From NCBI GenBank assembly GCA_963752475.1, contig CAVVYR010000008.1:288001-352000 (forward strand): a DNA stretch of 64,000 bases, read 5' to 3'. Both the position numbers and the translations under genes were made by a program. The notes beneath the pieces were generated by a model that made no database searches, was not told the DNA's origin, and saw only the letters and a program-made list of their open reading frames with translations. The stretch comes from an uncultured Chloroflexia bacterium (GTDB taxonomy: Bacteria; Chloroflexota; Limnocylindria; Limnocylindrales; CSP1-4). Shown here one piece after another: positions 21,949-50,010 of the stretch. Numbering within the stretch: the stretch's first letter is position 1; every line of letters begins with the position of its first letter.

Positions 21949-21959
21949 CTAGTCCGACC

Positions 21960-22784
21960 TCCCGACACGCTACCCCTCCGCCATCACGTGAGCGCCCGCC
22001 GCTCCGGCCGGAGTGGATGGAGGACGCCATCTGTGATGGTGATGCGTCCACGCCCTTCCTCGAGACGCCGACGTTCACGGCGGCCGACCGCAGCGCCTGT
22101 GCGATCCCCATGATCGCCTCACTGGCCGCGGCCGGGTTGGGGTCGTCGCTCGCACCCCGCAACTGCTGGGCGGCGGAGAGGTAGTCCAGCAGGGCGCTGC
22201 CGCACGCCCACTGTCGGGTCAGCTGCGGCGTGTCCTTCTTCTTCTGATACTGGTCCCACCCAGTAGAGCATCTGCCCCTCGTCGAAGATCCCGCCACCGG
22301 TGTAGTCGGTCAGTCCGGCGAGCGCGTCGGCGTACCTCTCGTTCGCATAGAGACGCTCGATCATCTTCTTGACCTACTTGTACGTCGCCTTCTTGTCGAC
22401 CTTCGCGGCGAGCAGAGCCGCCACGGTGTCGGCCGGGAAGCCCTCGGCCATGGCTTCCGCGCCTGGCTCCGGCATGGTGTCGGTCTCCGTCGCCGCGGCC
22501 TCGCACGGCCACTCGTATCCGACCGCCGACCGGAACGCATCGATCGCGGCGTGCCCACATGGGAGGGCGAAGATCTCCGGCAACGGGTCGAGCTTGCTGC
22601 CGCTGTAAGCGAACTGCGCACCCAGCGTATCGCCGGTGACACCGTCCGCGACCATCGCCACCTTGCCGGTCTTGCGGTCAGACTTGGCGCGCCGTTGGGG
22701 GGTGGCCGGGTCCACCGGCACGCAGACCGGCTCGGGCGATGCCTCGACAGCTGTCGCAGCGTCAGGCGTCAGTGACGGGGCCAC
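21960..22784 (-). pseudogene. Degraded hypothetical gene (in-frame TAG plus at least one frameshift)
   Basis: KKATYK-TAG(22374)-VKKMIERLY continues in the same frame, then shifts near 22255 into WDQYQKKKDTPQL; both ends uncertain. Confidence 0.5.
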
Positions 22785-22901: not shown

Positions 22902-23501
22902 CTAGGAGGAAAGAGCCTTGGTGATGGAGGGCGGGATCATCACGCCGTCGATGACGTGGATCTGGAGGTTCTTGGAGCGGATGTTCTTGACGATGACGTT
23001 GGTCGAGTCGATGATCACGCGGTTCTTCTGGCCGCGGAGGATGGTGGGCTCGCCGTCGAGCATCGTGATCTTGGCCGGACGGAGTGACTTGGCCGTGGCG
23101 TAGTTGACCTTGCCGTCAGCGAACACGTGGTGCGAGAGGATCTGGGCCAGCGCGCCGGGGCTCCCCAGGACCGCGTCGACCTGGCAAACGTTGCTCGAGT
23201 TGAGCGGCTTGCCGATGAGGGCCTGGCCGAGTGCGCGGAAGGCCTTGTTGTCGGGGGCGAAGAGCGTCGCGGCCGGGACGGTCTGGAGGGCCTCCACGAT
23301 GCCGGGGGTGCAGACCGCGGCCGTGATCAGCGTCGACAGGCGGTCGTCGTTGTTGGCGCTGAAGTTGACCAGGCGAGTCACGCCGTTGGCGTCGGAGGGG
23401 ACGGTGCCACGACCCTCGATCGCGGCGGAGGCGCCGGGGGCGATGGTGGCGAGGGCGAGGGATGCCAGCAGCGTGCCGGCGAGAAGCTTCTTGAGGAACA
23501 T
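22902..23501 (-). CDS. Secreted fasciclin (FAS1) domain protein
   Basis: Signal peptide; TLFAPDNKAF (H1), ILSHHV, IHVIDGVMIP (H2). Confidence 0.88.
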   Translation of the reverse strand: MFLKKLLAGTLLASLALATIAPGASAAIEGRGTVPSDANGVTRLVNFSANNDDRLSTLITAAVCTPGIVEALQTVPAATLFAPDNKAFRALGQALIGKPLNSSNVCQVDAVLGSPGALAQILSHHVFADGKVNYATAKSLRPAKITMLDGEPTILRGQKNRVIIDSTNVIVKNIRSKNLQIHVIDGVMIPPSITKALSS

Positions 23502-23557
23502 CGGGTTACCTTTCTTTCCTATCGGTTCGTAGTCGAGCGGTGTATCTGCGTGAGTGG

Positions 23558-23599
23558 CCGTGTGAGGCCCGGCTGGGGGGACGCCGGGCCTCACACGGA
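23558..23599. terminator. Strong intercistronic hairpin (terminator or mRNA stabiliser)
   Basis: CCGTGTGAGGCCCGGC...GCCGGGCCTCACACGG, 16-bp perfect stem. Confidence 0.6.
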
Positions 23600-23616
23600 T
23601 GTCAGGAGGCTTCGGG

Positions 23617-24906
23617 TTAGCGGGACGCTTCCTCGACCAGGATCACGTCGAAGGAGTCGGGGAACTGGCCGATGGCGATGGCGCTATAGGCCTTGCCGTC
23701 CTCGAGAGGCAGCGGCGGGATGTCGAACGCCTTGGCACGCTCACCAGCGGCACGGATGTCGAGATCGACCTCACCGGCGGGCACGTTCTTGTAACCCTTG
23801 GCGTCGCCGAACTCGAGGTTCTTGAAGATGGCGGCGTTGCGCTTCGAGCCGTCCGGCGCGATGTCGACCTTGGGCGCGTTGGCGCTGAGGTGGACGACGC
23901 GGACCTTGGCGCCCTCGGCGCGCGGCGTGACGCGCTTGTCGTTGATGACGACCGGGGTGATCTGGGCCAGCTCGTTCGTGGCCGCGACCGTGGTCAGCGT
24001 GCCACCGTCGAAGTCCAGGTCGACCGGGCCGATGACGGCGCCGTCGGCCGGGTCAGCACCAGCGGCCACGACTTCGATGGTGTAGGTGCCGGCCGGCACG
24101 AACAGGTAGTCGGACAGGGCGCCGAAGGGCACGTCCGAGAGGATGGCGCCGCCGTTGGCGTAGACGTCCACGTTGGGGGCATCAGCGCTGAAGTGGCCGA
24201 CGCGCACACCGGCGACGGAGGCGTCGACGGCAGGCAGGACGGTGAAGGAGCCGTCGGCCAGGGAGCCGATGGCGAAGACGCTGTAGCTGATGCCATCCGT
24301 GAGGGTGATCTCGGGGATGTCAAAGGCCACGTCCTCGGTGCCCGCAGCGCGGATCTCGAGGTCGTACTTGCCGCCGGGAAGAGCGAGGTACTCGGTGGCG
24401 TTGGGGTAGGACAGGTCGGTGATGAGCGCATCGCCGCCGTCGGGAGCGATATCCACGGCCGGCGCATCAGCGCTGAAGTGGACCACGCGCACCTGAGCAC
24501 TGTCGCCCGCAGGCATGGGCTCGTCGGCCAGCACCTGGGCCTCGATGTTCTCGAGGGTGTTGGTGGCCGCGACGGTGGTCATGGTGCCAGCGGCGAAGTC
24601 GAGGTCGACCGGGCCGATGACGGCGCCGTCCGCGAGGTCCGCACCAGCGGCCACGACGGCGATCGAGTAGGTACCACCGGGGACTTCGAGGTACTCGGAG
24701 AGCACGCCGAAGGGCACGTCGGTGAGGATGGCGTCGTCGCCGGCGTAGACGTCGACGGCCGGGGCGTCGGGGCTGAAGTGGCCGACGCGGACCTTGGCGG
24801 TCTCATCCTGGGCTGCGGTGGCGAAGGGAACGGCTACGGTGGCCGCGAGCGCGACTGCGGTGCCGAGAAGACCAGCCTTGCGGCGGATCGAGAGTTGCTG
24901 AGTCAT
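23617..24906 (-). CDS. Secreted protein with repeated DUF4397 modules
   Basis: Signal peptide; four VRV(G/V)H(F/L)SxxAPxVD repeats and YLxVPxGxY motifs. Confidence 0.88.
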   Translation of the reverse strand: MTQQLSIRRKAGLLGTAVALAATVAVPFATAAQDETAKVRVGHFSPDAPAVDVYAGDDAILTDVPFGVLSEYLEVPGGTYSIAVVAAGADLADGAVIGPVDLDFAAGTMTTVAATNTLENIEAQVLADEPMPAGDSAQVRVVHFSADAPAVDIAPDGGDALITDLSYPNATEYLALPGGKYDLEIRAAGTEDVAFDIPEITLTDGISYSVFAIGSLADGSFTVLPAVDASVAGVRVGHFSADAPNVDVYANGGAILSDVPFGALSDYLFVPAGTYTIEVVAAGADPADGAVIGPVDLDFDGGTLTTVAATNELAQITPVVINDKRVTPRAEGAKVRVVHLSANAPKVDIAPDGSKRNAAIFKNLEFGDAKGYKNVPAGEVDLDIRAAGERAKAFDIPPLPLEDGKAYSAIAIGQFPDSFDVILVEEASR

Positions 24907-24994
24907 TGTGGGGTCCTCTGCGTGAGAAAGCGGGTGAGCTGGCGGCCCTACCAGGTTGGGTAGGCGCCGCCAGCGTGTGGGAAGTCGGGGAGCG

Positions 24995-25741
24995 TTACTC
25001 CTCGGTCATCTCCTCTTCGGCCATGTCCTCTTCGGCCATCTCGTCATCCATCATCTCGACAGAAGCGTCGAGGGCGGGAAGGACGGTGAAGGAGCCGTCG
25101 GCGAGGGAGCCGATGGCGAAGACGGTGAAGCTGTTGCCGCCGGCCAGATCGAGCGGATCGATGTCGAAGGCCACGTCCTCGGTGCCCGCAGCGCGGATCT
25201 CGAGGTCGTACTCACCCTCGGGCAGATCGAGGTAAGCCTCGGTCGCGTTCGGGTACTCGAGGTTCTCGACGACCACGTCGCCGCCGTCGAGGGCGATGTC
25301 CACGGCCGGCGCGTCAGCGCTGAAGTGGACCACGCGGACCTCGGCGATGCCGTCCTCAGGCATGGGCTCGTCGGCCAGCACCTGGGCCTCGATGTTCTCG
25401 AGGGTGTTGGTGGCCGCGACGGTGGTCATGGTGCCGGCGGCGAAGTCGAGATCGACCGGGCCGATGACGGCGCCGTCCGCGAGGTCCGCACCAGCGGCCA
25501 CGACGGCGATCGAGTAGGTACCACCGGGGACTTCGAGGTACTCGGAGAGCACGCCGAAGGGCACGTCGGTGAGGATGGCGTCGTCGCCGGCGTAGACGTC
25601 GACGGCCGGGGCGTCGGGGCTGAAGTGGCCGACGCGGACCTTGGCGTTCTCGTGGCCGTCAGCGGCGACGAAGGTCGGGATGGCCATGACCGCGGCGAGA
25701 GCAGCGGCGGCGCCGATCATGTGGATCTTGGTGTTGCGCAT
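24995..25741 (-). CDS. Secreted DUF4397 protein with acidic Met-rich tail
   Basis: Signal peptide; two VRVxHFSxDAPAVD repeats; C-terminus EMMDDEMAEEDMAEEEMTEE. Confidence 0.88.
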   Translation of the reverse strand: MRNTKIHMIGAAAALAAVMAIPTFVAADGHENAKVRVGHFSPDAPAVDVYAGDDAILTDVPFGVLSEYLEVPGGTYSIAVVAAGADLADGAVIGPVDLDFAAGTMTTVAATNTLENIEAQVLADEPMPEDGIAEVRVVHFSADAPAVDIALDGGDVVVENLEYPNATEAYLDLPEGEYDLEIRAAGTEDVAFDIDPLDLAGGNSFTVFAIGSLADGSFTVLPALDASVEMMDDEMAEEDMAEEEMTEE

Positions 25742-27741: not shown

Positions 27742-29414
27742 CCGCGGTCCGCTCCATCCGCGCCCGGGTCCACGGGCTCATCGAGGAGGCTTGGGAAGCG
27801 GCCACCGCGTCGGGGGCGCTGCCGCAGGTCGAGGCCGATGCGCGCCCCGAGTTCGAGATCGAGCGCCCGACGAATCCCGACCACGGTGACCTTGCCGCCA
27901 ACCTGGCCATGAAGCTGGCCCGGCCGATGCGCCGATCTCCCCTGCAGATCGCCGAGGCGCTCGCCGAGGCCATCCGTAGCGTGCCCTCTGCCGGTGCGCT
28001 CAGCGAGGTTACGGTGGCGCCACCCGGCTTCATCAACATGCGCCTCTCGGCCGCCTGGCTCGAAGGCCTGCTCGACGAGGCTCGAGCCGCTGGTGACGAC
28101 TTCGGACGCGTCGAGCCCGAGTCACCTCGTCACTTCAACGTCGAGTTCGTGTCGGCCAATCCCACCGGTCCCCTGCACGTGGGCAATGCCCGAGGCGCCT
28201 TCGTCGGCGACCTCCTGTGCCGAGTGCTCGAGGGCGCCGGTCATCGCGTCACGCGCGAGTACTACTTCAACGACGCCGGCTTGCAGATCCGCAACCTCGG
28301 TGTCTCGGTCATCGCGCGCAAGCTGGGCCAGGACATCCCGGAGGACGGTTACCACGGTGCCTACGTGGATGACCTCGCCCAGGAACTCCCCGACGATGTC
28401 TGGGCGATAGCCAACGAGGACGGCGCCGACCGAGAGGCCGTCATAGCCGATTGGGCCCAGGAGCGCGTCCGCTCAGGCATCGAGCGGAGCCTCGAACGGC
28501 TTGGCGTGCATTTCGACGTATGGAAGAGCGAATCGAGCCTGCACACCGAGGGCTGGGTCGGCCGATCGGTCGAACGGCTGCAGGAGGCGGGTCACATCTA
28601 CGAAGAGGACGGCGCTACCTGGTTCCGCTCCACGAACTTCGGGGATGACAAGGACCGCGTGGTCTACCGCTCGGGTGGCCAGCCGACCTACTTCGCTTCG
28701 GACATCGGCTACGTGACCGAGAAGTTCAGTCGCGGCTTCGACAAGCTCATCTACATCTGGGGTGCCGACCACCACGGCACGGTGGCTCGCGTGCGCAACG
28801 CGGCACAGGCCATGGGCCTGCCCGTGAACGAAGTCGAGATGCTGCTCGTGGCCTGGGTCCGCTTCGTGCGAGATGGCGAAGAGATCCCCATGAGCAAGCG
28901 CTCGGGCGAGTTCCTCACGCTCGACGAGCTGCTCGAGGAGCTGGGTGTCGACGCGGCCCGCTGGTCATTCGCCTCACGCGCGCCCAGTTCGCCCATCGAC
29001 GTGGACCTCGAGCTGGCCAAGAAGCAGTCGTCCGAGAACCCGGTCTACTACGTGCAGTACGCACACGCGCGCATCAGCTCGATCCTGGCCAAGGCTGCTG
29101 CAGCCGGGCTCGCTCCCGCTACGGAGTTCGCCGGCATGCTGGAGGGCGATGACGTGGCCACGGGGCTTGCCCGCGAGGTACTGCGACTGCCGGAGGTCGT
29201 CGAGGACGGCGCTCGTGACGAAGAGACACATGGCATCACCACGTACGCCATGGAGCTGGCCACGACGTTCCACGCCTTCTACCGCGATCGCCGCGTCGTC
29301 GACCCTGAGGACCCCGCGACGTCGGCCGGCCGTCTCGCGTTGGTCGGCGTGACACAAGAAGCCATCCGCAACTCGCTGGCCCTGCTCGGTATCTCCGCCC
29401 CGGAATCGATGTAG
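27738..29414 (+). CDS. argS: Arginine--tRNA ligase
   Basis: EFVSANPTGPLHVGNAR, WGADHHG, MSKRSG, NPVYYVQYAHAR, C-terminal APESM. Confidence 0.97.
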   Translation: MTAVRSIRARVHGLIEEAWEAATASGALPQVEADARPEFEIERPTNPDHGDLAANLAMKLARPMRRSPLQIAEALAEAIRSVPSAGALSEVTVAPPGFINMRLSAAWLEGLLDEARAAGDDFGRVEPESPRHFNVEFVSANPTGPLHVGNARGAFVGDLLCRVLEGAGHRVTREYYFNDAGLQIRNLGVSVIARKLGQDIPEDGYHGAYVDDLAQELPDDVWAIANEDGADREAVIADWAQERVRSGIERSLERLGVHFDVWKSESSLHTEGWVGRSVERLQEAGHIYEEDGATWFRSTNFGDDKDRVVYRSGGQPTYFASDIGYVTEKFSRGFDKLIYIWGADHHGTVARVRNAAQAMGLPVNEVEMLLVAWVRFVRDGEEIPMSKRSGEFLTLDELLEELGVDAARWSFASRAPSSPIDVDLELAKKQSSENPVYYVQYAHARISSILAKAAAAGLAPATEFAGMLEGDDVATGLAREVLRLPEVVEDGARDEETHGITTYAMELATTFHAFYRDRRVVDPEDPATSAGRLALVGVTQEAIRNSLALLGISAPESM

Positions 29415-29451
29415 ACGACCCGGCTCACGGCCGGAGACACTCGAACATGAT

Positions 29452-29480
29452 CGAAGGCCGGGCTCGTGGCCCGGCCTTCG
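29452..29480. terminator. Hairpin between convergent argS and the PASTA gene
   Basis: CGAAGGCCGGGC-TCGTG-GCCCGGCCTTCG, perfect 12-bp stem. Confidence 0.7.
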
Positions 29481-29511
29481 ATCTCTCTGTCGTGGCTCGC
29501 GGGCCGGATGC

Positions 29512-32500
29512 TCAGCGCGGAACGGCGACCGCCACGCCCAGCCCATCGGCTACTGACTGGAGCGTCTCGGCACTGTCAGCGATGAGCACCAACGCCGGGT
29601 TCGAGACACCGCTCGAGACATCGACCGGAGCGACCAGGCCGACACCGTCGAGGCCGGCGACGACCGCGTTGGCGGCATCGCCGAACTGCTCGATGTCCTG
29701 CTCGGTATCCCACTTGGTCTGCCACACGATGGCCCAGCTGCCGTCAGGCCCGTCGAGGCTGACGAGGCGATCACCGCCCCAGCCGGCCGCGGCGTTGGCC
29801 CTCGGCAGCTTCACCGCCGCCTTGGGGCCGGTCTGCTCGCCGGCAGCGCCGTCAGCCAGCCATACGCCGATGCGCAGCTCGCCCATGGTCTGCTGCCACT
29901 TCTCCGACCAGCCGTTCCCAAGACGCGCGGCGATGCCGTCCATGACGATCGTCGTCGGTCGCTCGTCGGGATACTTGGCGGGGTGCAGGATCTGTTCGGT
30001 CGACTCGGGCAAGCGGCCCCAGGCACCGTTGACACTGCCCCAACCGCCGTCACTCTTGAGCCGATCGACGAAGATGCGGCCCTCGAGGAACGGGAACGAG
30101 TACTCACGCTGGAGGATCAGCGGCATGGAGGCGTAGATCGCGTCATCACCAGGAACGGTGATGCCGTTGGTCTGCGCGTCGTTGCCGTACTGCGCCGACC
30201 ACTCGATCATGGCCGAGGTTCCGTCGCCCAGCTCGAGAGCATATGCCGCGAGAGCCTGATCACCTCGGGTCTTGTCGCCCACGCGGGCGGCTTGAAGCCC
30301 GAAGTTCTGGTCGACCAGCGCCCGATCCAGCTCACGCGCAGCCTCAGATCGCTGGGAAGCGTTGAGCTTGTCGTTCGGCTCCAGCACTGACAGATGGCCT
30401 TCGTCCTCGAAGTACGCGACCGGCAACGCCTGTCCGTAGAGCGTCTCGAGCAGCGCGGCCAGGTCGGCGTTGCCCTCGAGCAGGCCCAGCCGCTTGAGCG
30501 CACGCTCCTCGGCCTTGATCGCACCGGTGTCGCGAAGGATGCCGATGCGCTCGGCCAGACCGAGCTCGTGCTGGCGGGCATTGCTGCCGTCATACGGCGT
30601 GTTGCCCAGGTCGAGCCCTCGGATCTGCTGGATCCGAGCGGCGATCGAGTCGAGCTGCGAGGCGACCTCAGCACTGGCGAGGTCTCCACCGGTGCCCATC
30701 TGCTCGATGGCCGGGCCGGTCGAGAACGTGTAGTCGACGGTGCTGTTCTTGTCGAGCGTGGTACCGGCGGCCGGGCTCTGATCGATGACGGTGCCGGATG
30801 GCGCCGCGTTCTCGGCGGGGGTGTTGGTGCCGACGGTGAGCTCGGCCTCCTCGATGGCGGCCTGCGCCTGACCCTGGCCGAGGCCGACGATGTCGGGCAC
30901 CGTGACCTGCTTGGGGCCCTTGCTTATCGTCAGCGTGACGGTGGAGCCGACATCGACCACCTCGCCGGCGACGGGCTCGGTCTTGACGGCGTTGCCAGCA
31001 GCCACGCTGCTGTTCGTCCGCTCCTGGATCTCCACCACGAGCCCGAGGTTCTCGAGATCGTTGACGGCCCGGGCCTGGGACGAGTCCTTGACTGCGGGGA
31101 TCTCCACCTGGGGTGGACCCGCGCTGATGGTGAGGTTCACGGCCGAACCGGTCGGTACCTCGCTCCCAGCGGCAGGATCCTGGCTCAGGACCGTGCCCTG
31201 GGGCGCGTTGTCGTCGGCAACGCTGACGTCACCGACGACGAGCTTGGCGTCCGTGATGGCCGCTTCGGCCCTGCCACGACCGTCACCGACGACATCGGGC
31301 ACGATCGCGGGCTTGGGGCCCTTGCTCACGTTCATCGTGACGGCCGAGCCGACATCGACGACCTCGCCTGCGGCAGGCGTGGTCTTGATGGCGTCACCGG
31401 CCGCGACGTTGGCGTGATGGACTTGCTTGGTCTCGACCACCAGGCCGAGGCCTTCGAGCGTCGACTGCGCTTCGGCAGCCGGCACGTTCTTGACTGCGGG
31501 GATCTCCACCTGGGGTGGACCCGCGCTGATGGTGAGGTTCACGGCCGAACCGGTCGGTACCTCGCTCCCAGCGGCAGGATCCTGGCTGAGGACAGTGCCC
31601 TGGGGGGCGGCGTTCTCCACGCGGTCGTCGGTGCCGACCACGAGGCCGGCATCGGTGATGGCCGCAGAAGCGGCGCCCTTCCTGGAGCCAACGACATCGG
31701 GCACGACCGCAGGCTTGGGACCCTTGCTGACCGTCAGCGTGACGGTCGAGCCGATACCGACCACCTGACCGGCGGCGGGCTCGGTCTTGACGGCGTTGCC
31801 GGCCTCGACCGAAGCGTTGCTTCGTTCCTGGGCCTGGACCACGAAGCCGAGTCCCTCGAGGGCAGCCTGCGCATCGGCGGCGGGCGAATCCCTGACCTCC
31901 GGGATCTCAGCTGTGGGCGGCCCCGAGCTGAGCGTGAGGTTGACGGCCGATCCCGTCGGCACCTCGGCATCGGCAGGAGGGTCCTGCGCGATGACGGTGT
32001 TCTTGTCCGTGGCGTCCTCCACAGACGTCTCCTCGCCGACCACGAGGCCGGCATCGCTGATGACCGTGGAGGCGGCGCCCTTCTTCGAGCCGACCACGTT
32101 CGGGACGACCACCGGCTTGGGGCCCTTGCTGATGGTCAGCGTGACCTCCGAGCCGACATCGACCGGCGAGCCGGCAGCGGGCTGGGTCTTGACGGCGTTG
32201 CCCGCGGCCACTTTGGCGTTGTGGGCTTCGCGGGTGACGACCGAGAGACCTTCGGCCTCGAGGCTCGCCTGCGCGTCGCCAGCGGCCACGTCCCTGACCT
32301 CAGGGACCACGATCTGTGGCGGACCCGAGCTCAAGGTGATGTCCACGGCCGAGTTCTTGTCGGCCTGACCACCGGGAGGGGGGTCCTGCGCGACGACGGT
32401 GTTCTTGGCGGCAGTATCCTCCACCACCGCTTCGGCACCGACCTTGAGCTCGGCGCCGGCGAGGGCGGTCTCAGCCTCGCTCAGCGTCATGCCGACGACA

Positions 32501-35500
32501 TCAGGGATGTCGACCTGCTTGGGGCCCTTGCTCACGATGAGCGTGACCTCGGCGCCGATCTCGGCCTCGGTTCCGGCGGCGGGCTCGGTCTTGACAGCCT
32601 GTCCAGCCGGGTACTTGGCGTTGGTGCGCTCGACGGGCATGACCACGAGGTCTGCGGCCTCGAGCGCGGCCTGAGCGGCGGCGGCCTCCTGGCCGGCGAC
32701 GTCCGGGACGGTGCGGAACTTGGTGCCTGTCGAGATGAAGAGCTTCACGGACTCGCCGAGCAAGATCTCCTCACCCTCGGCCGGGTTGGTCTTGATGGCG
32801 TCGCCGGCTCCGACCTTCTCGTGCGTCTGCTGTGTGATCTCGCCGACCACCAGATCGGCGCCCTCGATCGCTGCCACTGCGTCGGCCTCCGGCAGATCGC
32901 GAACGGCAGGGACCTGGACGAACGGCGTGGGACCATCACTGATGACGAAGTCGACCGCCGAGCCCATGTCGACCTCCATCCCGGCGGACGGGGACTGGCT
33001 GACGACGTTGCCGGCGACGATGGTCTCGTCGTAGGCGTCGGTGATAGCGCCGACACTGAGGCCGGCGGCCTCGATGGCAGCGGCTGCGTCGGCTTCGGGG
33101 CTATCGACCACGTCCGGTGCGGCCACCTGTTCGACCCCGAGGCTGATGACGTAGTCGACGGCCGAAGCGGCGTCGACGGTGGTGTCGGCGGAAGGGCTGG
33201 TGCTGGTGACGTTGCCCGCGACGATGGTGTCGCTGAAGGCCTCGGTGCGGTTGCCCGCGGCGAGGCCGGCGTCGTCGATGGCGGCGAGCGCGTCGGCCTC
33301 GGCCATCTCGACGACGTCGGGCACCGTCGACCTGCTCGGGACCGATGCTCATGAAGAGGGAGACGGCGGAACCGATATCGACCATCTCACCGGCTCCTGG
33401 ATCCGTGCGTAGGGCGGCTCCGGCGGGCACGTTGGCATGGTTGCGCTCGAGGACCTCACCGACGGTCAGGCCGGCGGCTTCGATGGCACTCGTGGCGTCC
33501 TCCTGGGACAGCTCACGCACCTCGGGCACGGCGGCCTGCTCCACGCCGAGGGACTCGACGTAGCTGACGGCGGTGCCGAGCTCGACCTCGGTGCCGGCGC
33601 TCGGCGACTGGCTGATGACGTCGCCCGCGGCGACGGTGTCGCTGTATGCCTGGGTCGCGTCACCGACGCTGAGGCCGGCGGCGCTGATGGCATCGGGGGC
33701 ATCGGCGGCGGGCCCCGCGAGATCGGGCACGGCCACGGTCTCGACCCCGAGGCTGATGACGTAGTCGACGGCCGAAGCGGCGTCGACGGTGGTGTCGGCG
33801 GAAGGGCTGGTGCTGGTGACGTTGCCCGCGACGATGGTGTCGCTGAAGGCCTCGGTGCGGTTGCCCGCGGCGAGGCCGGCGTCGTCGATGGCGTCGAGCG
33901 CGTCGGCCTCGGCCAGGTCGACGATGTCGGGCACCGTCGACCTGCTCGGGACCGATGCTCATGAAGAGGGAGACGGCGGAACCGATATCGACCATCTCAC
34001 CGGCTCCTGGATCCGTGCGTAGGGCGGCTCCGGCGGGCACGTTGGCATGGTTGCGCTCGAGGACCTCACCGACGGTCAGGCCGGCGGCTTCGATGGCACT
34101 CGTGGCGTCCTCCTGGGACAGCTCACGCACCTCGGGCACGGCGGCCTGCTCCACGCCGAGGGACTCGACGTAGCTGACGGCGGTGCCGAGCTCGACCTCG
34201 GTGCCGGCGCTCGGCGACTGGCTGATGACGTCGCCCGCGGCGACGGTGTCGCTGTATGCCTGGGTCGCGTCACCGACGCTGAGGCCGGCGGCGCTGATGG
34301 CATCGGGGGCATCGGCGGCGGGCCCCGCGAGATCGGGCACGGCCACGGTCTCGACCCCGAGGCTGATGACGTAGTCGACGGCCGAAGCGGCGTCGACGGT
34401 GGTGTCGGCGGAAGGGCTGGTGCTGGTGACGTTGCCCGCGACGATGGTGTCGCTGAAGGCCTCGGTGCGGTTGCCCGCGGCGAGGCCGGCGTCGTCGATG
34501 GCGTCGAGCGCGTCGGCCTCGGCCAGGTCGACGATGTCGGGCACCGTGACCTGCTCGGGACCGATGGAGATGGAGTAGTGCGACCTCGGAGCCGACGGCG
34601 AGCCATCTCACCGGCTGCCGGGCTCTCGTGCGTAGGGCGCTCACCGGCCGGGACGGTGTCGCATGGTTACCTCGAAGGGGTGCCGACGGCGAGGCCGGCG
34701 GCGGTCGATGGCACTCGTGTCGGCTTCATCGGCGGGCCCCGCGAGGTCCGGCACGGCGGCCTGCTCCACGCCGAGGGACTCGACGTAGCTGACGGCGGTG
34801 CCGAGCTCGACCTCGGTGCCGGCGCTCGGCGACTGGCTGATGACGTCGCCCGCGGCGACGGTGTCGCTGTATGCCTGGGTCGCGTCACCGACGCTGAGGC
34901 CGGCGGCGCTGATGGCATCGGGGGCATCGGCGGCGGGCCCCGCGAGATCGGGCACGGCCACGGTCTCGACCCCGAGGCTGATGACGTAGTCGACGGCCGA
35001 AGCGGCGTCGACGGTGGTGTCGGCGGAAGGGCTGGTGCTGCTGACGTTGCCCGCGACGATGGTGTCGCTGAAGGCCTCGGTGCGGTTGCCCGCGGCGAGG
35101 CCGGCGTCGTCGATGGCGTCGAGCGCGTCGGCCTCGGCCAGGTCGACGATGTCGGGCACCGTGACCTGCTCAGGGCCGATGGAGATGGTGTAGTCGACCT
35201 CGGAGCCGACGGCAGCCATCTCACCGGCGGCCGGGCTCTGGTCGTTGACCTCACCGGCCGGGACGGTGTCGCTGTTCACCTCGAAGGTGGTGCCGACGGC
35301 GAAGCCGGCAGCGGTGATCCTCGCGTCGGCTTCATCGGCGGGCCCCGCGAGGTCCGGCACGGCGGCCTGCTCCACGCCGAGGGACTCGACGTAGCTGACG
35401 GCGGTGCCGAGCTCGACCTCGGTGCCGGCGCTCGGCGACTGGCTGATGACGTCGCCCGCGGCGACGGTGTCGCTGTATGCCTGGGTCGCGTCACCGACGC

Positions 35501-38500
35501 TGAGGCCGGCGGCGCTGATGGCATCGGGGGCATCGGCGGCGGGCCCCGCGAGATCGGGCACGGCCACGGTCTCGACCCCGAGGCTGATGACGTAGTCGAC
35601 GGCCGAAGCGGCGTCGACGGTGGTGTCGGCGGAAGGGCTGGTGCTGGTGACGTTGCCCGCGACGATGGTGTCGCTGAAGGCCTCGGTGCGGTTGCCCGCG
35701 GCGAGGCCGGCGTCGTCGATGGCGTCGAGCGCGTCGGCCTCGGCCAGGTCGACGATGTCGGGCACCGTGACCTGCTCAGGGCCGATGGAGATGGTGTAGT
35801 CGACCTCGGAGCCGACGGCAGCCATCTCACCGGCGGCCGGGCTCTGGTCGTTGACCTCACCGGCCGGGACGGTGTCGCTGTTCACCTCGAAGGTGGTGCC
35901 GACGGCGAAGCCGGCAGCGGTGATCCTCGCGTCGGCTTCATCGGCGGGCCCCGCGAGGTCCGGCACGGCGGCCTGCTCCACGCCGAGGGACTCGACGTAG
36001 CTGACGGCGGTGCCGAGCTCGACCTCGGTGCCGGCGCTCGGCGACTGGCTGATGACGTCGCCCGCGGCGACGGTGTCGCTGTATGCCTGGGTCGCGTCAC
36101 CGACGCTGAGGCCGGCGGCGCTGATGGCATCGGGGGCATCGGCGGCGGGCCCCGCGAGATCGGGCACGGCCACGGTCTCGACCCCGAGGCTGATGACGTA
36201 GTCGACGGCCGAAGCGGCGTCGACGGTGGTGTCGGCGGAAGGGCTGGTGCTGCTGACGTTGCCCGCGACGATGGTGTCGCTGAAGGCCTCGGTGCGGTTG
36301 CCCGCGGCGAGGCCGGCGTCGTCGATGGCGTCGAGCGCGTCGGCCTCGGCCAGGTCGACGATGTCGGGCACCGTGACCTGCTCAGGGCCGATGGAGATGG
36401 TGTAGTCGACCTCGGAGCCGACGGCAGCCATCTCACCGGCGGCCGGGCTCTGGTCGTTGACCTCACCGGCCGGGACGGTGTCGCTGTTCACCTCGAAGGT
36501 GGTGCCGACGGCGAAGCCGGCAGCGGTGATCCTCGCGTCGGCTTCATCGGCGGGCCCCGCGAGGTCCGGCACGGCGGCCTGCTCCACGCCGAGGGACTCG
36601 ACGTAGCTGACGGCGGTGCCGAGCTCGACCTCGGTGCCGGCGCTCGGCGACTGGCTGATGACGTCGCCCGCGGCGACGGTGTCGCTGTATGCCTGGGTCG
36701 CGTCACCGACGCTGAGGCCGGCGGCGCTGATGGCATCGGGGGCATCGGCGGCGGGCCCCGCGAGATCGGGCACGGCCACGGTCTCGACCCCGAGGCTGAT
36801 GACGTAGTCGACGGCCGAAGCGGCGTCGACGGTGGTGTCGGCGGAAGGGCTGGTGCTGGTGACGTTGCCCGCGACGATGGTGTCGCTGAAGGCCTCGGTG
36901 CGGTTGCCCGCGGCGAGGCCGGCGTCGTCGATGGCGTCGAGCGCGTCGGCCTCGGCCAGGTCGACGATGTCGGGCACCGTGACCTGCTCAGGGCCGATGG
37001 AGATGGTGTAGTCGACCTCGGAGCCGGGCGCGACCTCGGCGTCGGCGGCGGGATCGGAGCTGCTGACGTTGCCCGCGACGATGGTGTCGCTGAAGGCCTC
37101 GGTGCGGTTGCCCGCGGCGAGGCCGGCGTCGTCGATGGCGTCGAGCGCGTCGGCCTCGGCCAGGTCGACGATGTCGGGCACCGTGACCTGCTCAGGGCCG
37201 ATGGAGATGGTGTAGTCGACCTCGGAGCCGGGCGCGACCTCGGCGTCGGCGGCGGGATCGGAGCTGCTGACGTTGCCCGCGACGATGGTGTCGCTGAAGG
37301 CCTCGGTGCGGTTGCCCGCGGCGAGGCCGGCGTCGTCGATGGCGTCGAGCGCGTCGGCCTCGGCCAGGTCGACGATGTCGGGCACCGTGACCTGCTCAGG
37401 GCCGATGGAGATGGTGTAGTCGACCTCGGAGCCGGGCGCGACCTCGGCGTCGGCGGCGGGATCGGAGCTGCTGACGTTGCCCGTGACGATGGTGTCGCTG
37501 AAGGCCTCGGAGCGGTTGCCCGCGGCGAGGCCGGCGTCGTCGATGGCGTCGAGCGCGTCGGCCTCGGCCAGGTCGACGATGTCGGGCACCGTGACCTGCT
37601 CAGGGCCGATGGAGATGGTGTAGTCGACCTCGGAGCCGGGCGCGACCTCGGCGTCGGCGGCGGGATCGGAGCTGCTGACGTTGCCCGTGACGATGGTGTC
37701 GCTGAAGGCCTCGGAGCGGTTGCCCGCGGCGAGGCCGGCGTCGTCGATGGCGTCGAGCGCGTCGGCCTCGGCCAGGTCGACGATGTCGGGCACCGTGACC
37801 TGCTCAGGGCCGATGGAGATGGTGTAGTCGACCTCGGAGCCGGGCGCGACCTCGGCGTCGGCGGCGGGATCGGAGCTGCTGACGTTGCCCGTGACGATGG
37901 TGTCGCTGAAGGCCTCGGAGCGGTTGCCCGCGGCGAGGCCGGCGTCGTCGATGGCGTCGAGCGCGTCGGCCTCGGCCAGGTCGACGATGTCGGGCACCGT
38001 GACCTGCTCAGGGCCGATGGAGATGGTGTAGTCGACCTCGGAGCCGGGCGCGACCTCGGCGTCGGCGGCGGGATCGGAGCTGCTGACGTTGCCCGCGACG
38101 ATGGTGTCGCTGAAGGCCTCGGAGCGGTTGCCCGCGGCGAGGCCGGCGTCGTCGATGGCGTCGAGCGCGTCGGCCTCGGCCAGGTCGACGATGTCGGGCA
38201 CCGCGACCTGCTCGGGACCCTGGCTCACCACGAGGTCGACGGTGCTGCCCTCGGGCAGCTCGGAATCGGTGACAGGATCGGTGCTGATGACACCCCCGGC
38301 GGGGACGTCATCGTCGTAGACGTAGTCGATGTTGCCGACCGCGAAGCCGGACTCGTCGAGGACGGTCTCGGCGTCTTCTTCGCTCAGACCCGACACGTCG
38401 GGCACAGAGCCGGTGGGCACCGCCTGTGCCACTGATAGGTCGATGGTGGAACCTTCCTCGACCGGCTCTCCGGGCTCGGGTTCCTGCGAGAGGACGGTCC

Positions 38501-39197
38501 CGGGTTCGGCGTCGTCGGTGTTGACGGTCTCGACACGGATGACCAGGCCATAGTCGCCGGCCGTCGCTTCCGCCTGCTCGAGCGTGAGGCTGACGAAGCT
38601 CGGCGTGTCGACGATCGTGATGCCGGGGCTTTCGCTGGCTTCTTCGGTCGCGGCCGGGCTGGGCGAGAGTGAGGCGTCGACGTCGCTCAGGTTGTCGAAC
38701 GGGCGGAAGAGGATGAGCACGATGGCCAAAGCCACGATGAATGCACCCACGAGGATGCCGCCCACCAGCAGCACGGGCGTGCCCTCGTCCTCGGGCTCTT
38801 CGCCGGGCGGGATGGGGGGTGTCTCAGGCGGCTCGAGGGTGACCTCGGGCTTGGCGGCGAGTGCGGCGAGTGCAGCCTCAGTGGCCTCGGGATCCGGTGC
38901 CACGGGCGTCGTCGTCCAAGCAGCTCCGGCAGCAGCGGCGTCAGCTGCCTCGGCCTCGGTCTCGGCGACGACGTCTGCGGCAGCCTCCTCGTCCGCGGCA
39001 GGCGCGTCACCGACCGGTTCTGCGGGCTCGCCCTCCTCGGTCATGCCTGCGGACTCTTCGGCCGCTTCGGACTCTCCGGCCGCTTCGGCCTCCTCGGGCT
39101 GCTCGGTCGCCATCTCGGCCTCCTCGGGCTCGGGCGGCGTGCTCTGGGGATCGGTGGACATGTTGTCGTCGCCGGCGTCCGGCCTCTTCTCTGTCAT
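29512..39197 (-). CDS. Giant membrane-anchored PASTA-repeat protein (~39 PASTA domains) with C-terminal inactive zinc-metallopeptidase-like domain; three frame breaks as assembled
   Basis: ORFs 34641-39197, 33660-34544, 33101-33934 and 29512-33324 join into acidic N-terminus, TM helix, VPD(V/I)...VxLxxSxG repeats and a peptidase-like tail. Confidence 0.85.
33130..38200. repeat. Hierarchical tandem repeat within the PASTA gene
   Basis: Marker gacgatgtcgggcaccg recurs every 204 bp (6 units, ~38188 to 36964), then at 606, 606, 606, ~616, ~610, ~610 bp (three-domain units). Confidence 0.92.
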
Positions 39198-39337
39198 GGC
39201 AGGCGGACCTTATGCCAACCCGAGTGGGTCTGTGGGGCGATCCGGGAACCCATCTGGGTCTTTCCCGACGCAAGTGTCCGTTTCTTCATCGTCCGCCGCT
39301 CCTCGCTTCACTCGCAGGCGGCTCGCGATGTCAGAGG

Positions 39338-40603
39338 TCAGAGACCGAGGGTGTCCTTGAGAGTCCCCAGGGTCGCGTCGCTGTCGGCCACCAGGACGAG
39401 TACTGGAGAGGATAGTCCTCCAACGACATCGGCATTCGTCGCGCTATGCGCCCCAGGCAGGTCATTCATGGCCTTCCGAGCCGTGGAGCGGAACTCCTTC
39501 TGGTCCGCCGTGCTATCCCAGGCCGTCTGCCACACCACGGCCCATGCCCCGTCAGGTCCGTCGAGGCTCACGAGCCGGTCTCCACCCCAGCCGGCCGCGG
39601 CGTCGGCGTTGGGCAACTGCGCAGGCAGCGCCGGGAACAGCGATCGCGTCTTCTTGCCGTCGGCGAGCCAGATGTGTGTCTGCATCTCACCCATCGTCTG
39701 CTCGTAGCTGGAGACCCAGTCCGCACCGAGCGCCGATGCGATGTCGGGCAACTCGATCTCGACGGGCAGTTCCTTGGGGTAGAGCTCGGGGTGCAGGATC
39801 TGCTCCGTCGAGACGGGCGGGTCAGCGAAGGCGGCGTCGACCGCACCCCAGTCACCCTGGCCACGGAGCGCATTGACGAAGGTGTAGCCGTCGATGTAGG
39901 CGAACTCGAGCGGGCGCGTGACGATGTCCGGGAGGCGATCCAGCTTGTTTGCATCCTGTTGCGTGAGCGCCTGCGCCGAGACCGAGATGAGGTCGCGGAG
40001 CTTGAGCTCGCGCGCGGCCCAGTCGTACATCACGGCCGTGGCGTCCCCCTCGACCAGTGCCGCCTCGGCCCAGATGCGATCGGCCATGTCTGGGTCCTCG
40101 TCGTAGAACGTGTCGAGATCGAAGGCCTGATCCTGCAGGGCATGGCCGTACTCGTGAGCCACGATGATCTTCTCGGTGGGGCCGATCTTCTCGACCGGGC
40201 CGATGATCGAGAACGTCTCGGTCTCCGGATCGTAGGCCGCGAGCGCCTGCTGGTCGTAGAGCTTGAGGGTGAGCTTCTCGAGGTCCTGGTTCGGACCGAT
40301 CAGCCCGAGGCGCTTGTAGGTGTTTTCCTCGGCCTCGATGAACTCGGGCGGGTATTCCTCTAGCAGAGACTCCTTGAGCCCGGTCAGGAACGCCTCCGAG
40401 TCGATGACCTCATAGGTCACCCCCTCGGCCGCCGGCAGGCGGCGGATCGCAGGGACCGCGTCCGTGACCTCGGCCACGCGGTCGGCCATCTTCTGGGTGA
40501 AGCCTTCGGGCAGCTCGGACGCTTCCTCTTGTGCCGCGGCGGGCGTGACGACGAGCGTCGTGAGCAGGAGGGCAGGAGCGAGGGTGTGTCGGAGAGATGC
40601 CAT
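39338..40603 (-). CDS. Secreted putative zinc metallopeptidase (HEXXH), paralogue of the PASTA protein tail
   Basis: Signal peptide ..PAAA-Q; AHEYGHALQDQ, ALVEGDAT, PPVSTEQILHP, AAAGWGGDR. Confidence 0.8.
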   Translation of the reverse strand: MASLRHTLAPALLLTTLVVTPAAAQEEASELPEGFTQKMADRVAEVTDAVPAIRRLPAAEGVTYEVIDSEAFLTGLKESLLEEYPPEFIEAEENTYKRLGLIGPNQDLEKLTLKLYDQQALAAYDPETETFSIIGPVEKIGPTEKIIVAHEYGHALQDQAFDLDTFYDEDPDMADRIWAEAALVEGDATAVMYDWAARELKLRDLISVSAQALTQQDANKLDRLPDIVTRPLEFAYIDGYTFVNALRGQGDWGAVDAAFADPPVSTEQILHPELYPKELPVEIELPDIASALGADWVSSYEQTMGEMQTHIWLADGKKTRSLFPALPAQLPNADAAAGWGGDRLVSLDGPDGAWAVVWQTAWDSTADQKEFRSTARKAMNDLPGAHSATNADVVGGLSSPVLVLVADSDATLGTLKDTLGL

Positions 40604-40872
40604 TGCCGCATTCTGCCAGCCCTTCGCCCAAACACCAGCGGGACGAATGGGTCGTTTCGCCGAACGTGCACCAGATGTGCGTTTCTTCATCATTCGGGGT
40701 CTGGTGCCTTCACGCTCGATGTCTACTCTTCTCGATACGGAACCGCGAAGATGATCTTCACAGTTCCCTCTCCCTCCCTCTTGGAACGAGGGGCGCTGAT
40801 TGGGCAGGCGTCCCTCGTTCCTTCTTTGTGTGCCTCCGGTGGGCCGCGCGCGCCTGTGGCACCATCGGATTC

Positions 40873-41559
40873 ATGGAAATCACCTGGTTCGGCGGCTCAT
40901 GTGTTCGTCTCAAGGGACGTGAGGGGGTCGTCGCCGCAGACCCGTTCCGGTCCATCGCTGGGCCCACGGGCCGTGGCCTCACCGCAGATATCGTCTCGTA
41001 CGGCCACCCCGACGAGTCGGTCGTGACCGGGCGTGGTTCCAAGGCCAAGGCCGGTGTGACCTCACACCAGCTCGGTGTGCCGCTGCCGACGAGCCTGGAG
41101 AGGGCCTTCGTGCTCGACTCCCCCGGAGAGTACGAGGTCCACGACGTGATGGTCGTGGGTGTGCGCACGTTCCGGGACAACGAGCAGGGTGCCGCCCGCG
41201 GGATGAGCACCTCGTTCGTATACGAGCTTGACGGGATCTACGTCGCTCACCTGGGCGAGGTCGGGCATCTGCTGGACCAGGACACCGTCCGCGAGATGGG
41301 CCACGTCGACGTGGTCTGCCTTGGCGTAGGGCCGCAACTGAGCGCCCCTCACGCGGCTGAGATCGTGGGGCAACTCGATGCCCACATGGTGGTGCCGATG
41401 CCGCTGACCGAAGCCGCTGCCGCGCCGGGGGGCGACCTCGAGAAGTTCCTCAACGAGATGAGCGCGACCGAGGCCCAGCCAGTGCCCAGCCTGAAGGTGA
41501 CCATCTCGACCGTGCCCAACGAGACCACGGTCGTGCTGCTGGAGCAGCGCGGACGCTAG
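40873..41559 (+). CDS. MBL-fold Zn-hydrolase-like protein (Lactamase_B_3 type), metal motif degenerate
   Basis: MEITWFGGSCVRL, DPF, PGEYEV, HLG, VVPM; several usual His ligands absent. Confidence 0.75.
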   Translation: MEITWFGGSCVRLKGREGVVAADPFRSIAGPTGRGLTADIVSYGHPDESVVTGRGSKAKAGVTSHQLGVPLPTSLERAFVLDSPGEYEVHDVMVVGVRTFRDNEQGAARGMSTSFVYELDGIYVAHLGEVGHLLDQDTVREMGHVDVVCLGVGPQLSAPHAAEIVGQLDAHMVVPMPLTEAAAAPGGDLEKFLNEMSATEAQPVPSLKVTISTVPNETTVVLLEQRGR

Positions 41560-48114: not shown

Positions 48115-48262
48115 GCCTCGCCTTCGGGGTCGGGTGAAATCCCCTACCGGTGGTCGGTGGAACCGCTCCGCCAGCCCACGACCCGCGCACCATTTCGAGT
48201 CGCGGTGGATTCCCTCGCAGGGAGCCGACGGTCATAGTCCGGATGAGAGAAGGAGAGAGGCG
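48115..48262 (+). ncRNA. FMN riboswitch (RFN element)
   Basis: CTTCGGGGTCGGGTGAAATCCCTACCGGTGG...AGCCCACGA...GAGCCGACGG..ATAGTCCGGATGAGAGAAG; extended -10 TGcTATAGT upstream. Confidence 0.95.
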
Positions 48263-48387: not shown

Positions 48388-49164
48388 TTGGACGCCATCG
48401 AGCTCCACGACATCTCGCGCAGTTTCAGCATCGACGGTGCGCCGCTGCATGTCCTCGATCGACTCGACCTTCGCGTAGCCGAGCGCGAGATCGTATCGAT
48501 CGTCGGACCGAACGGCTGTGGCAAGTCCACGCTCTTGCGCGTCATCAGTGGCTTGCTCGCACCCGACCACGGCAGCGTCCTGGCTTTCGACTCCACGGTA
48601 GCCGGCCCAGAGCCACGCATCGGGCTGGTGTTCCAGGAACCCCGCTTGCTGCCTTGGCGTGACGTGCTGACCAACGTGGCCTTCCCCCTGGAGTTGGCCG
48701 GTGTCGCGCGCGCAGAGCGGGAGGAGCGTGCGCGAGAGGCACTACGGCTGACGGGCCTCGACGGCTTCGCCGCCGCATACCCGGACCAACTGTCGGGTGG
48801 GATGGCCCAACGTGCGGCCCTCGCACGTGCGCTGGCCCCTGAGCCTGATGTGTTGCTGCTCGACGAGCCCTTCAGCGCGCTCGACGCCATGACCCGCGAG
48901 CGGCTCGATGACGAGTTGCTGCGCCTGTGGGGCGAGACCGGCTCCACGATCGTGCTGGTGACGCACAGCATCTCCGAAGCCGTGTTCCTGTCGGATCGCG
49001 TCTTGGTGATGTCGCAGCGACCGGGTCGCATCGTGGCCGAAGTGGCGGTCGAGGCAGAGCGGCCGCGCAGCCTGTCGGGCAGCGGTGCCACGATGTTCAG
49101 CGCCGCCGCTGACGAGGTGCGAGCACTCCTGGGGCGAGCCGACGAGCGAGAGGTGGCAGCGTGA
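48388..49164 (+). CDS. ABC ATPase of riboflavin uptake system (NitT/TauT type)
   Basis: GPNGCGKS, FQEPRLLPW, LSGGMAQR; downstream of FMN riboswitch. Confidence 0.88.
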   Translation: MDAIELHDISRSFSIDGAPLHVLDRLDLRVAEREIVSIVGPNGCGKSTLLRVISGLLAPDHGSVLAFDSTVAGPEPRIGLVFQEPRLLPWRDVLTNVAFPLELAGVARAEREERAREALRLTGLDGFAAAYPDQLSGGMAQRAALARALAPEPDVLLLDEPFSALDAMTRERLDDELLRLWGETGSTIVLVTHSISEAVFLSDRVLVMSQRPGRIVAEVAVEAERPRSLSGSGATMFSAAADEVRALLGRADEREVAA

Positions 49165-49988: not shown

Positions 49989-50010
49989 TCGCAGAAAGGA
50001 CCGACTTCCG

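Follow-up and report, generated by a model that had tools for sequence, protein, structure and literature searches.

PASTA domains classically bind peptidoglycan or muropeptides, occur usually in one to five copies on penicillin-binding proteins (PBPs) and kinases, and measure about 3 nm each. In the kinases PknB and PrkC they are arranged linearly, make contacts between neighbours only and bind muropeptides, according to the sections of PMC3601408 drawn on here. We analysed a 64,000-nucleotide stretch of DNA (the window; contig CAVVYR010000008.1 of assembly GCA_963752475.1, positions 288,001 to 352,000) from an uncultured Chloroflexia bacterium of the order Limnocylindrales. In this window a single gene strings together 39 PASTA domains and ends in a zinc-less copy of the putative peptidase encoded directly upstream of it. 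The combination of a stalk-plus-head surface-protein architecture with an enzyme/pseudo-enzyme pair is real, conserved and undescribed in the literature searched. In open-access papers and bioRxiv preprints we found no mention of DUF8230 (PF26686), the family of both the enzyme and its zinc-less copy, and no description of a PASTA stalk or of a PASTA-anchored pseudo-peptidase.

Parts of this design are familiar from elsewhere. Catalytically dead LytM factors such as EnvC and NlpD activate amidases, and giant adhesins may be under the control of a protease, as in LapA/LapG. Periscope proteins are marked by highly identical DNA repeats, short linkers and variable repeat number, as set out in the parts of PMC8201768 consulted. 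The nearest named family of the peptidase-like domains is that of Hvo_1808, a haloarchaeal protein with a lipobox, known from the passages of PMC2945643 used here only as a Sec substrate that is processed and stays mostly with the cell.

Results

A predicted secreted protein and a giant PASTA protein are encoded side by side

The window has a G+C content of about 68%, and positions 29512-40693 are occupied by two co-oriented genes on the minus strand (Table 1); this G+C content and the names of the database matches agree with Ca. Limnocylindria, for which part of PMC10608941 gives averages of 68.9% G+C and 2.39 Mb. The first gene encodes a secreted DUF8230 protein, which is 421 residues long from an internal ATG, the usual length of its homologues, and 451 residues long from an upstream ATG at 40693. 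The second gene is 9,686 nt in length, which is indivisible by three, and is split in the assembly over four open reading frame (ORF) pieces (34641-39197, 1,518 aa; 33660-34544; 33101-33934; 29512-33324, 1,270 aa). Read through, it would give a protein of the size, about 3,200 residues, that had been proposed in an earlier examination of the letters and translated ORFs alone (the sequence-only reading).

The predicted giant protein consists of an acidic low-complexity cytoplasmic tail, one transmembrane (TM) helix, a Ser/Pro-rich linker that joins this helix to the first PASTA domain, the PASTA array and a C-terminal DUF8230 domain. The signal peptide of the secreted protein and the TM helix were assigned by eye from the sequence, not by a predictor. 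The acidic tail and single hydrophobic helix agree with the sequence-only reading, as does the lack of an enzyme domain of the usual kinds, since PASTA was the one family of substance that Pfam recognised in the four pieces. A kinase is missing from the 1,518-aa N-terminal piece, whose cytoplasmic part is the 139-residue tail, as it is from the other three, and a transpeptidase is absent from all four, so that the protein is neither a PASTA serine/threonine kinase nor a PASTA-bearing PBP.

A weak consensus scan of 29300-41000 found no terminator-like site on the minus strand (three sites, all on the plus strand and at chance level). There were no sigma-70-like promoter sites in the same interval, and Rfam gave no match within or beside the two genes.

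The C-terminal domain has lost the zinc site and is under purifying selection

The C-terminal ~390 residues of the giant protein are 40% identical to the secreted protein over 333 residues (E 2e-77), in keeping with the paralogy that had been claimed. The two motif changes reported with it, from AHEYGHALQDQ to ARELDRALVDQ and from ALVEGDAT to ALELGDGT, are exact in the window. We counted the residues at these sites in 24 dead domains, from the window and 23 loci (L022 and L024 were excluded because the site is not covered). The first zinc-binding His is replaced by Arg in all 24, and the second by Arg in 16 and Gln in eight. The position of the third ligand holds Gln (15), Glu (seven), Leu (one, the window) or Ala (one). 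The general-base Glu of HExxH is retained in 23 of the 24, the window included. The sequence-only reading had suggested looking for conservation of the His-to-Arg change and for orthologues that retain HExxH; the Arg is universal at the first His, and no close orthologue keeps the motif.

Other positions in the domain are strongly constrained. Across 25 dead-clade sequences R122, the GDGT that follows the ligand position, the clade-specific segment VPG(D)D and the blocks STEQILHP and GWGGDR are invariant or nearly so. HExxH and EGD are kept in 15/15 adjacent and 55/55 other secreted DUF8230 copies aligned. Rough dN/dS ratios for eight genome pairs, in some of which dS is ~1, fall at 0.16-0.28 in the dead domain, against 0.14-0.32 in the secreted copy. 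The dead domain is under purifying selection like that on the active copy and is thus functional, but not as a zinc enzyme. A predicted complex between the secreted protein (residues 56-451) and the dead domain scored 0.00 in two runs without controls and counts neither for nor against an interaction.

The secreted protein is a putative zinc metallopeptidase

The Pfam scan returned no family for the secreted protein, the PF26686 model apparently being missing from the copy used. Its assignment rests on precomputed labels, carried by 120 of 120 listed homologues and by five of five intact giant orthologues, and on Atlas clusters, in which the PF26686 family is named DUF8230. The homologues at E<=0.001 number 794, and most of the 120 listed span 421-450 residues. 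Both window proteins also match NF038145, the Hvo_1808 family of surface proteins, over model positions ~23-381 of 432, with 147.1 bits for the secreted protein and 101.6 bits for the C-terminal domain against a cut-off of 200. Judged by these scores, both DUF8230 domains are related to the Hvo_1808 family and are not its equivalogs.

Three residues (E181, E215 and G216) never vary in an alignment of 99 diverse family members, and three more (H180, H184 and D217) are conserved in at least 90% of them. The secreted protein thus has HExxH and a downstream Glu (H180, E181, H184 and E215), a gluzincin-type feature, the HExxH...E pattern being that which we take to be characteristic of gluzincins. 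From these motifs, putative zinc metallopeptidase appears a reasonable label.

We used AlphaFold2 to model the domain from the same 99-sequence alignment (mean predicted local distance difference test, pLDDT, of 88.5); an earlier model from 33 close homologues had a pLDDT of 53 and was discarded. The sole fold match in the PDB at E<=0.001 was 3cmn (E 8.7e-4, probability 1.00, 20% identity), with template-modelling scores of 0.33 (query) and 0.47 (target). Weaker matches were to M9 collagenases, M34 lethal factor, M78/IrrE and M1 (E 4e-3 to 0.3, scores <0.35). A profile-sequence search of the PDB likewise retrieved 3cmn (E 0.074, over the E215 region) and IrrE (E 0.39, aligned on HExxH). With the single secreted sequence as query, the PDB gave only spurious repeat matches to designed kelch-like proteins.

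Thirty-nine PASTA domains form the predicted stalk

Pfam identified 38 intact PASTA domains in the four pieces (19 + 3 + 3 + 13), as did a hidden Markov model (HMM) built from the window's own units, and one scrambled copy brings the total to 39, the figure that the sequence-only reading had reached by hand (2+6+18+13). The two large pieces score 659.5 bits (E 1.5e-203) and 515.9 bits (E 1e-158) with PF03793, for which the cut-off is 23.2. The array begins with two unique domains, followed by six near-identical single units (204 bp), six three-domain units (606-615 bp) and 13 distal domains. The ~12-13 distal domains are more divergent, with two types alternating at a two-domain period of 402 bp. 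Three successive 606-bp units differ at 0-1 positions, and the exact copy number inside these 100%-identical repeats is not to be trusted to a single unit.

The gap between successive PASTA envelopes is three residues in the window and in five intact orthologues. By analogy with the linear arrangement in PknB and PrkC, and with linkers this short, the array is most likely drawn out into a rather stiff rod, whose length would be on the order of 100 nm if each domain adds some 3 nm.

Repeated 40-mers make up 62% of the window array, 36-91% of the orthologous full-length arrays and 74-91% of those that are uninterrupted. The amplified unit differs between orthologues: one domain was multiplied 22 times in P0271 and P0272, two domains nine times in P0274, and three domains four to six times in P0270 and the window. 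The total is 32-39 domains in the intact genes despite these different units. The membrane-proximal and central parts of the array are kept near-identical through recurrent intragenic amplification. The giant gene shares with periscope genes the long tandem repeats of high identity and a variable repeat number, 29-48 PASTA domains across 18 full-length loci from different species.

The gene pair is a conserved module of Limnocylindrales

A profile-free search of 1.84 billion representative sequences with the dead domain retrieved 6,185 relatives at E<=0.001, nearest among them several fragments (P0121, 77%; P0122, 57%; P0123; P0135) in which PASTA domains are fused to a domain with this dead motif. 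A scan of one genome per species, again with the dead domain, gave 80 loci. In the first 23 of these the dead domain is 55-75% identical to that of the window, and the loci come from metagenome-assembled genomes (MAGs) titled Limnocylindrales, Chloroflexota or 'uncultured Chloroflexia'. The secreted paralogue lies directly upstream in 18/18 loci that have DNA upstream of the array, so that the conservation of the gene pair, which the sequence-only reading had left to be checked in relatives, is complete where it can be seen.

Four of the 18 full-length loci (L006, L012, L014 and L020) have no frame switch at all, and uninterrupted arrays are seen as well in two partial loci, L009 and L018 (at least 48 domains); the remaining full-length loci have 1-18 frame switches within the array, like the window. 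In the protein database there are five intact unnamed proteins of 2,760-3,231 residues with PF03793 and PF26686, in which our HMM finds 32-39 PASTA domains. The fragments in public databases are labelled only generically, for example as 'PASTA domain-containing protein, partial [Candidatus Limnocylindrales bacterium]'. With single intact ORFs of this kind in relatives, neither a low number of PASTA copies nor a set of separate genes applies, the two outcomes by which the sequence-only reading would have fallen.

The surroundings are conserved as well. In 18-23 of the first 25 loci one flank holds genes for ArgS, a metallo-beta-lactamase (MBL)-fold protein, a MerR/B12 regulator, two DUF4397 proteins and a fasciclin protein; an MBL-fold gene lies on the opposite flank in 11 of the 25. 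These flanks point to vertical inheritance of the module within a core region. The cluster of two DUF4397 genes and the fasciclin gene (window 22902-25741, minus strand) is itself syntenic with the PASTA gene in 18-20 related loci, and is separated from it by the ArgS, MBL-fold and MerR/B12-binding genes on the other strand. Two distant loci, L024 and L025, have the same pair with 48 and 29 PASTA domains and a secreted copy that is 38-41% identical to the dead domain of the window, so that the module is older than the group with 55-75% identity.

Strict adjacency and co-conservation would also be expected if the secreted peptidase processed the giant protein, maturing or releasing the stalk, with the dead head unrelated to enzyme targeting; the Ser/Pro-rich stretch that leads from the TM helix to the first PASTA domain could be where cleavage occurs, and LapA/LapG offers an analogy. 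Such processing leaves the conserved protease paralogue at the tip unexplained. We give it a very slight chance.

We placed the domains in a maximum-likelihood tree of 88 rows (unrooted, supported by the Shimodaira-Hasegawa-like approximate likelihood ratio test, SH-aLRT, only; even-numbered loci above L060 and pieces <300 aa were excluded). The dead domains form a monophyletic clade (24 rows, SH-aLRT 100, stem 1.06) and the adjacent secreted copies a clade of 14 rows (SH-aLRT 100, stem 0.79), both within one superclade (SH-aLRT 100). Also in this superclade are P0124-P0126, which are PASTA-anchored and keep HExxH intact, P0128, which is intact and TM-anchored, and three further dead proteins (P0139, P0147 and P0156). 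Separate from it is another, larger clade with 43 rows of secreted DUF8230 proteins. The PASTA-anchored intact relatives indicate that PASTA anchoring is a feature of a wider family, from which the dead giant is derived. On the simplest reading, a PASTA-anchored active enzyme gave rise by duplication to two proteins, one an enzyme secreted in free form and the other a dead copy that stayed anchored and whose stalk was then expanded.

In P0139, P0147 and P0156 the DUF8230 domain is also PASTA-anchored and has lost the site in different ways (e.g. AAGEAGK, AAGQADT), so catalysis may have been lost more than once in PASTA-anchored DUF8230 proteins. These three have ~11 PASTA domains, Pro/Thr-rich linkers of 13-23 residues and Pro/Gly/Tyr-rich cytoplasmic tails. 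A different arrangement is seen in P0154 (1,336 aa), which has a complete DUF8230 domain at each end, both with HELTH.

The PASTA-anchored intact relatives bear on a second explanation, namely that the 39 PASTA domains bind peptidoglycan multivalently, within or along the sacculus, as a wall-embedded scaffold on which the dead DUF8230 domain positions or activates the secreted paralogue on wall peptides, much as EnvC and NlpD activate their amidases. P0124-P0126, which are more distant, carry the intact domain on a shorter PASTA anchor, so that the ancestral enzyme probably acted close to the wall. The strict co-conservation of the enzyme and its dead paralogue, the core-genome neighbourhood of the module and the binding of muropeptides by the PASTA domains of PrkC and PknB (PMC3601408, in the sections cited above) are consistent with this. 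DUF8230, however, occurs in haloarchaea (NF038145) and in many Gram-negative phyla and is not obviously a peptidoglycan enzyme, and ~39 domains with three-residue linkers far exceed the thickness of a wall. No mur, PBP or ftsW gene was found among the 40 further window ORFs scanned, and the wall type of Limnocylindria is not stated in the sections of PMC10608941 consulted. We therefore place a wall-embedded scaffold on the unlikely side, as a serious alternative.

The cytoplasmic motif and transmembrane helix are near-invariant

The acidic tail has no Pfam family, and its sequence is divergent between orthologues save for the first ~10 residues and a juxtamembrane motif. This 46-residue segment contains WTTTPVAPDPEATEAALAALAA, with a WTTTP core, and is near-unchanged in all orthologous N-termini that reach it (15/17; L008 and L023 end short of it). 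The Thr run might, speculatively, be a phosphorylation or FHA-binding site. Residues 80-175 matched 31 database proteins, each of them a PASTA-bearing or fragmentary Limnocylindrales-type protein. That the motif might be common to other types of protein is unsupported, as all 31 matches (<833 aa) are fragments of the giant-protein family.

A passive anchor would need neither a conserved motif nor a conserved TM helix, and a reading with a cytoplasmic partner was retained for this reason. Here the protein would be a trans-envelope tether, ruler or mechanosensor, in which the head grips an outer layer, the length of the rod sets a spacing, and the TM helix and TTTP motif couple it to the cell interior. 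The near-invariance of the helix and of the 46-residue motif while other parts of the tail vary, the confinement of the motif to this family (31/31 matches), a total that stays at 29-48 domains though species amplified different units, and the conserved core neighbourhood all favour such a role. Against it, a range of 29-48 domains is not very tight, and the envelope of Limnocylindria is undescribed in the sections of PMC10608941 used. We consider a tether or ruler quite unlikely.

The frame breaks lie in near-identical repeats

All three break zones fall inside near-identical DNA repeats, in the most repetitive part of the array. The first is a scrambled PASTA copy, the last of one repeat variant before the second variant starts, and has a variant-A backbone with variant-B patches and about ten scattered 1-nt indels. 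The second and third consist of one extra G each, located exactly where the in-frame copies differ (A versus G). To judge from the pattern of bases, the breaks are probably errors of the assembly, of the kind expected if reads from near-identical repeats were mis-placed and merged into a mixed consensus. Programmed frameshifting or phase variation was rejected, because the extra G lies outside any homopolymer or slippery run and break 1 has its ~ten scattered indels.

The gene could still be a true pseudogene in this genome, or the array a construct of the assembly, either of which is compatible with the other readings of the protein. In favour of this are the presence of three break zones, the recurrence of the same extra G one unit apart and the 606-bp units of 100% identity, which assemblers cannot reliably place. 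The breaks, however, are confined to such repeats, break 1 is a base-by-base mix of two repeat variants with isolated indels, and the extra G sits exactly at the copy-variable position. Orthologous MAG loci show 0-18 frame switches in like arrays, four full-length loci having none; outside the breaks the domains are intact, and the repeat layout is that of the intact orthologue P0270. We judge a pseudogene or artefact improbable.

Six related loci (L005, L011, L013, L017, L022 and L023) have the non-repetitive secreted gene in 2-4 frame pieces (locus coordinates ~300-3000), and these MAG assemblies thus carry indel errors outside repeats too.

Coordinates and other features of the window

Table 1 Features of the two-gene locus in window coordinates.
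Feature	Position	Strand	Detail
Secreted DUF8230 (PF26686) zincin-like putative metallopeptidase	39338..40603	-	421 aa from internal ATG
Predicted Sec signal peptide	40532..40603	-	MASLRHTLAPALLLTTLVVTPAAA then QEE; hydrophobic core and Ala-x-Ala-type site
HEYGH zinc-binding/catalytic motif, intact paralogue	40142..40156	-	H180, E181, H184
VEGDAT segment with putative third zinc ligand	40037..40054	-	E215; conservation and weak 3cmn profile match
Intergenic spacer between secreted and giant genes	39198..39337	-	140 bp; co-oriented pair
Giant PASTA protein gene	29512..39197	-	~3,227 aa if read through; three break zones in assembly
Acidic low-complexity cytoplasmic N-terminal tail, residues 1-139	38781..39197	-	41 D+E vs 3 K+R
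Conserved juxtamembrane cytoplasmic motif	38826..38963	-	ETEAEAADAAAAGAAWTTTPVAPDPEATEAALAALAAKPEVTLEPP; 46 residues
Single transmembrane helix, residues 141-164	38706..38777	-	PVLLVGGILVGAFIVALAIVLILF; near-invariant among orthologues
Array of 39 PASTA domains	30712..38603	-	Pfam and HMM from window units
Break zone 1, scrambled PASTA copy at junction of two repeat variants	34557..34718	-	Approximate bounds
Break zone 2, one extra G	33938	-	GTCGACGG; in-frame copies GTCACGG or GTCGCGG
Break zone 3, identical extra G	33328	-	610 bp further along array, one repeat unit from break 2
C-terminal DUF8230 paralogue without zinc site (pseudo-peptidase head)	29515..30699	-	Similarity to secreted protein
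ARELDRALVDQ, site of former HExxH	30307..30339	-	Replaces AHEYGHALQDQ
ALELGDGT, site of former third ligand	30217..30240	-	Replaces ALVEGDAT

Elsewhere in the window, a flavin mononucleotide (FMN) riboswitch (RF00050, 79 bits, 48116-48258, plus strand) lies directly upstream of an ATP-binding cassette (ABC) transporter operon (48388-51033) that encodes an ATPase, a permease and an NMT1/THI5-like binding protein. Rfam also matched the small RNA ASdes (59 bits, 19484-19551, minus strand) antisense inside an FA_desaturase_2 gene (19103-20092, plus strand), which may simply reflect conserved desaturase coding sequence. There are a 670-aa DDE transposase (DDE_Tnp_1 and DUF772, 20285-22297, minus strand) and a DDE_3 remnant (57232-57470, plus strand) that runs in frame into the beginning of a CobQ-like ORF. 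At the left edge of the window a VWA-domain protein adjoins a homologue of TelA, associated with toxic anion resistance (72-2989, minus strand), and a tRNA gene is found at 4008-4081 (minus strand).

Discussion

We propose, with about even confidence, that the locus encodes a rigid PASTA stalk with a non-catalytic binding head that is functionally coupled to the co-encoded enzyme. The first gene would provide a Sec-secreted, soluble DUF8230 protein with an intact HExxH...E, the putative zinc metallopeptidase. The second would provide a type II membrane protein (N-in, C-out), with the disordered acidic cytoplasmic tail, TM helix, Ser/Pro-rich linker, ~39 PASTA domains and dead head in this order, whose PASTA rod would play the part that the stalk has in periscope proteins and fibrillar adhesins. 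Since the head is without zinc catalysis and yet under purifying selection, its substrate groove is most likely kept for binding, and the head could serve as a substrate trap or adhesin. It would act together with the secreted active paralogue, either docking it or sharing its ligand, and the two genes would be co-transcribed. The long stalk with a pseudo-enzyme tip that the sequence-only reading described holds up in its anatomy and in the selection on the dead domain, while the adhesin or scaffold role it assigned to the tip is still a conjecture.

Several observations weigh against our proposal. The peptidase activity of DUF8230 proteins is itself only putative, and the fold matches to zincins are weak, with template-modelling scores <0.35 except for 3cmn. 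The Glu of the third ligand survives in 7/24 dead domains and the general-base Glu in 23/24, so that the head may have a non-zinc activity. The cytoplasmic motif and TM helix are conserved beyond the needs of an anchor, which hints at a role that involves the cell interior, and a conserved core neighbourhood is atypical of adhesins, whose genes tend to be accessory and variable. Because PASTA domains classically bind peptidoglycan or muropeptides, the array may not project from the wall but run within or alongside it. Finally, the giant gene is interrupted in the window, and the attribution of these breaks to assembly error was made from the consensus sequence.

A bolder variant is that the module represents an unrecognised core envelope system of Limnocylindrales, a length-controlled rod of ~100 nm with 30-48 PASTA domains that acts as a ruler, tether or mechanosensor and not as an ordinary adhesin; this we rate as unlikely. 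Under it, the conserved TM helix and the TTTP-containing cytoplasmic motif would root the rod in the membrane, and the task of the zinc-less head would be to hold the active peptidase in place, to regulate it or to take hold of an outer layer. PASTA would then become a new class of stalk domain.

Whichever function applies, a domain that is the textbook sensor of kinases and PBPs here builds a protein of 2,700-3,700 residues with neither enzyme. The giant gene belongs to the conserved core of an abundant, uncultured Chloroflexota order of soil and freshwater, and takes up ~0.4% of a ~2.4-Mb genome. DUF8230, with thousands of members in many phyla, and its zinc-less paralogue offer a ready active/dead pair for work on ligands and substrates. 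Species amplify different units and arrive at a similar total length, which makes the importance of stalk length directly testable. In addition, frameshifts in such giant genes are probably artefacts in the MAG contigs analysed here.

We compared the locus to the described systems. Among structures, 3cmn from Chloroflexus aurantiacus, deposited as a 'putative hydrolase with a novel fold', is the best structural and profile-sequence match of the DUF8230 model, and no functional characterisation of it was found in the literature searched. Both window proteins match the Hvo_1808 family (NF038145) over near the full length of the model. The C-terminal copy of the giant protein differs in having lost both zinc-binding His residues and in its fusion to PASTA domains, whereas Hvo_1808 is a haloarchaeal lipobox protein in the account of PMC2945643, as far as consulted.

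The PASTA kinases (PknB, PrkC) and class B PBPs share with the giant protein the order of a cytoplasmic N-terminus, a TM helix and serial extracellular PASTA domains. The giant protein differs from them in having no kinase or transpeptidase, 29-48 PASTA domains instead of a handful, and a C-terminal DUF8230 domain. Like the degenerate LytM (dLytM) factors EnvC and NlpD, the dead head is a conserved envelope pseudo-enzyme that is genetically linked to an enzyme. In the DUF8230 pair, however, dead and active members come from one zincin-like family as mutual paralogues, and their coupling is one that we propose.

The overall design resembles that of periscope proteins and fibrillar adhesins such as SasG, Sgo_0707 and Rib, which are likewise anchored at one end and present a distinct, non-repeated distal domain on a stalk of tandem domains (PMC8201768 and PMC8286594, in the parts consulted). 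PASTA is mentioned neither in the main text nor in the one supplementary file consulted of each of these two papers, whose larger data sets may list it. The giant protein departs from that group in its PASTA stalk, and in being held by an N-terminal TM helix with a conserved cytoplasmic motif and not by an LPxTG anchor. Its tip is a dead zincin-like domain instead of a known adhesive domain, with an active paralogue of the tip encoded alongside. The giant gene is also core and syntenic, whereas the genes of periscope proteins and fibrillar adhesins are accessory.

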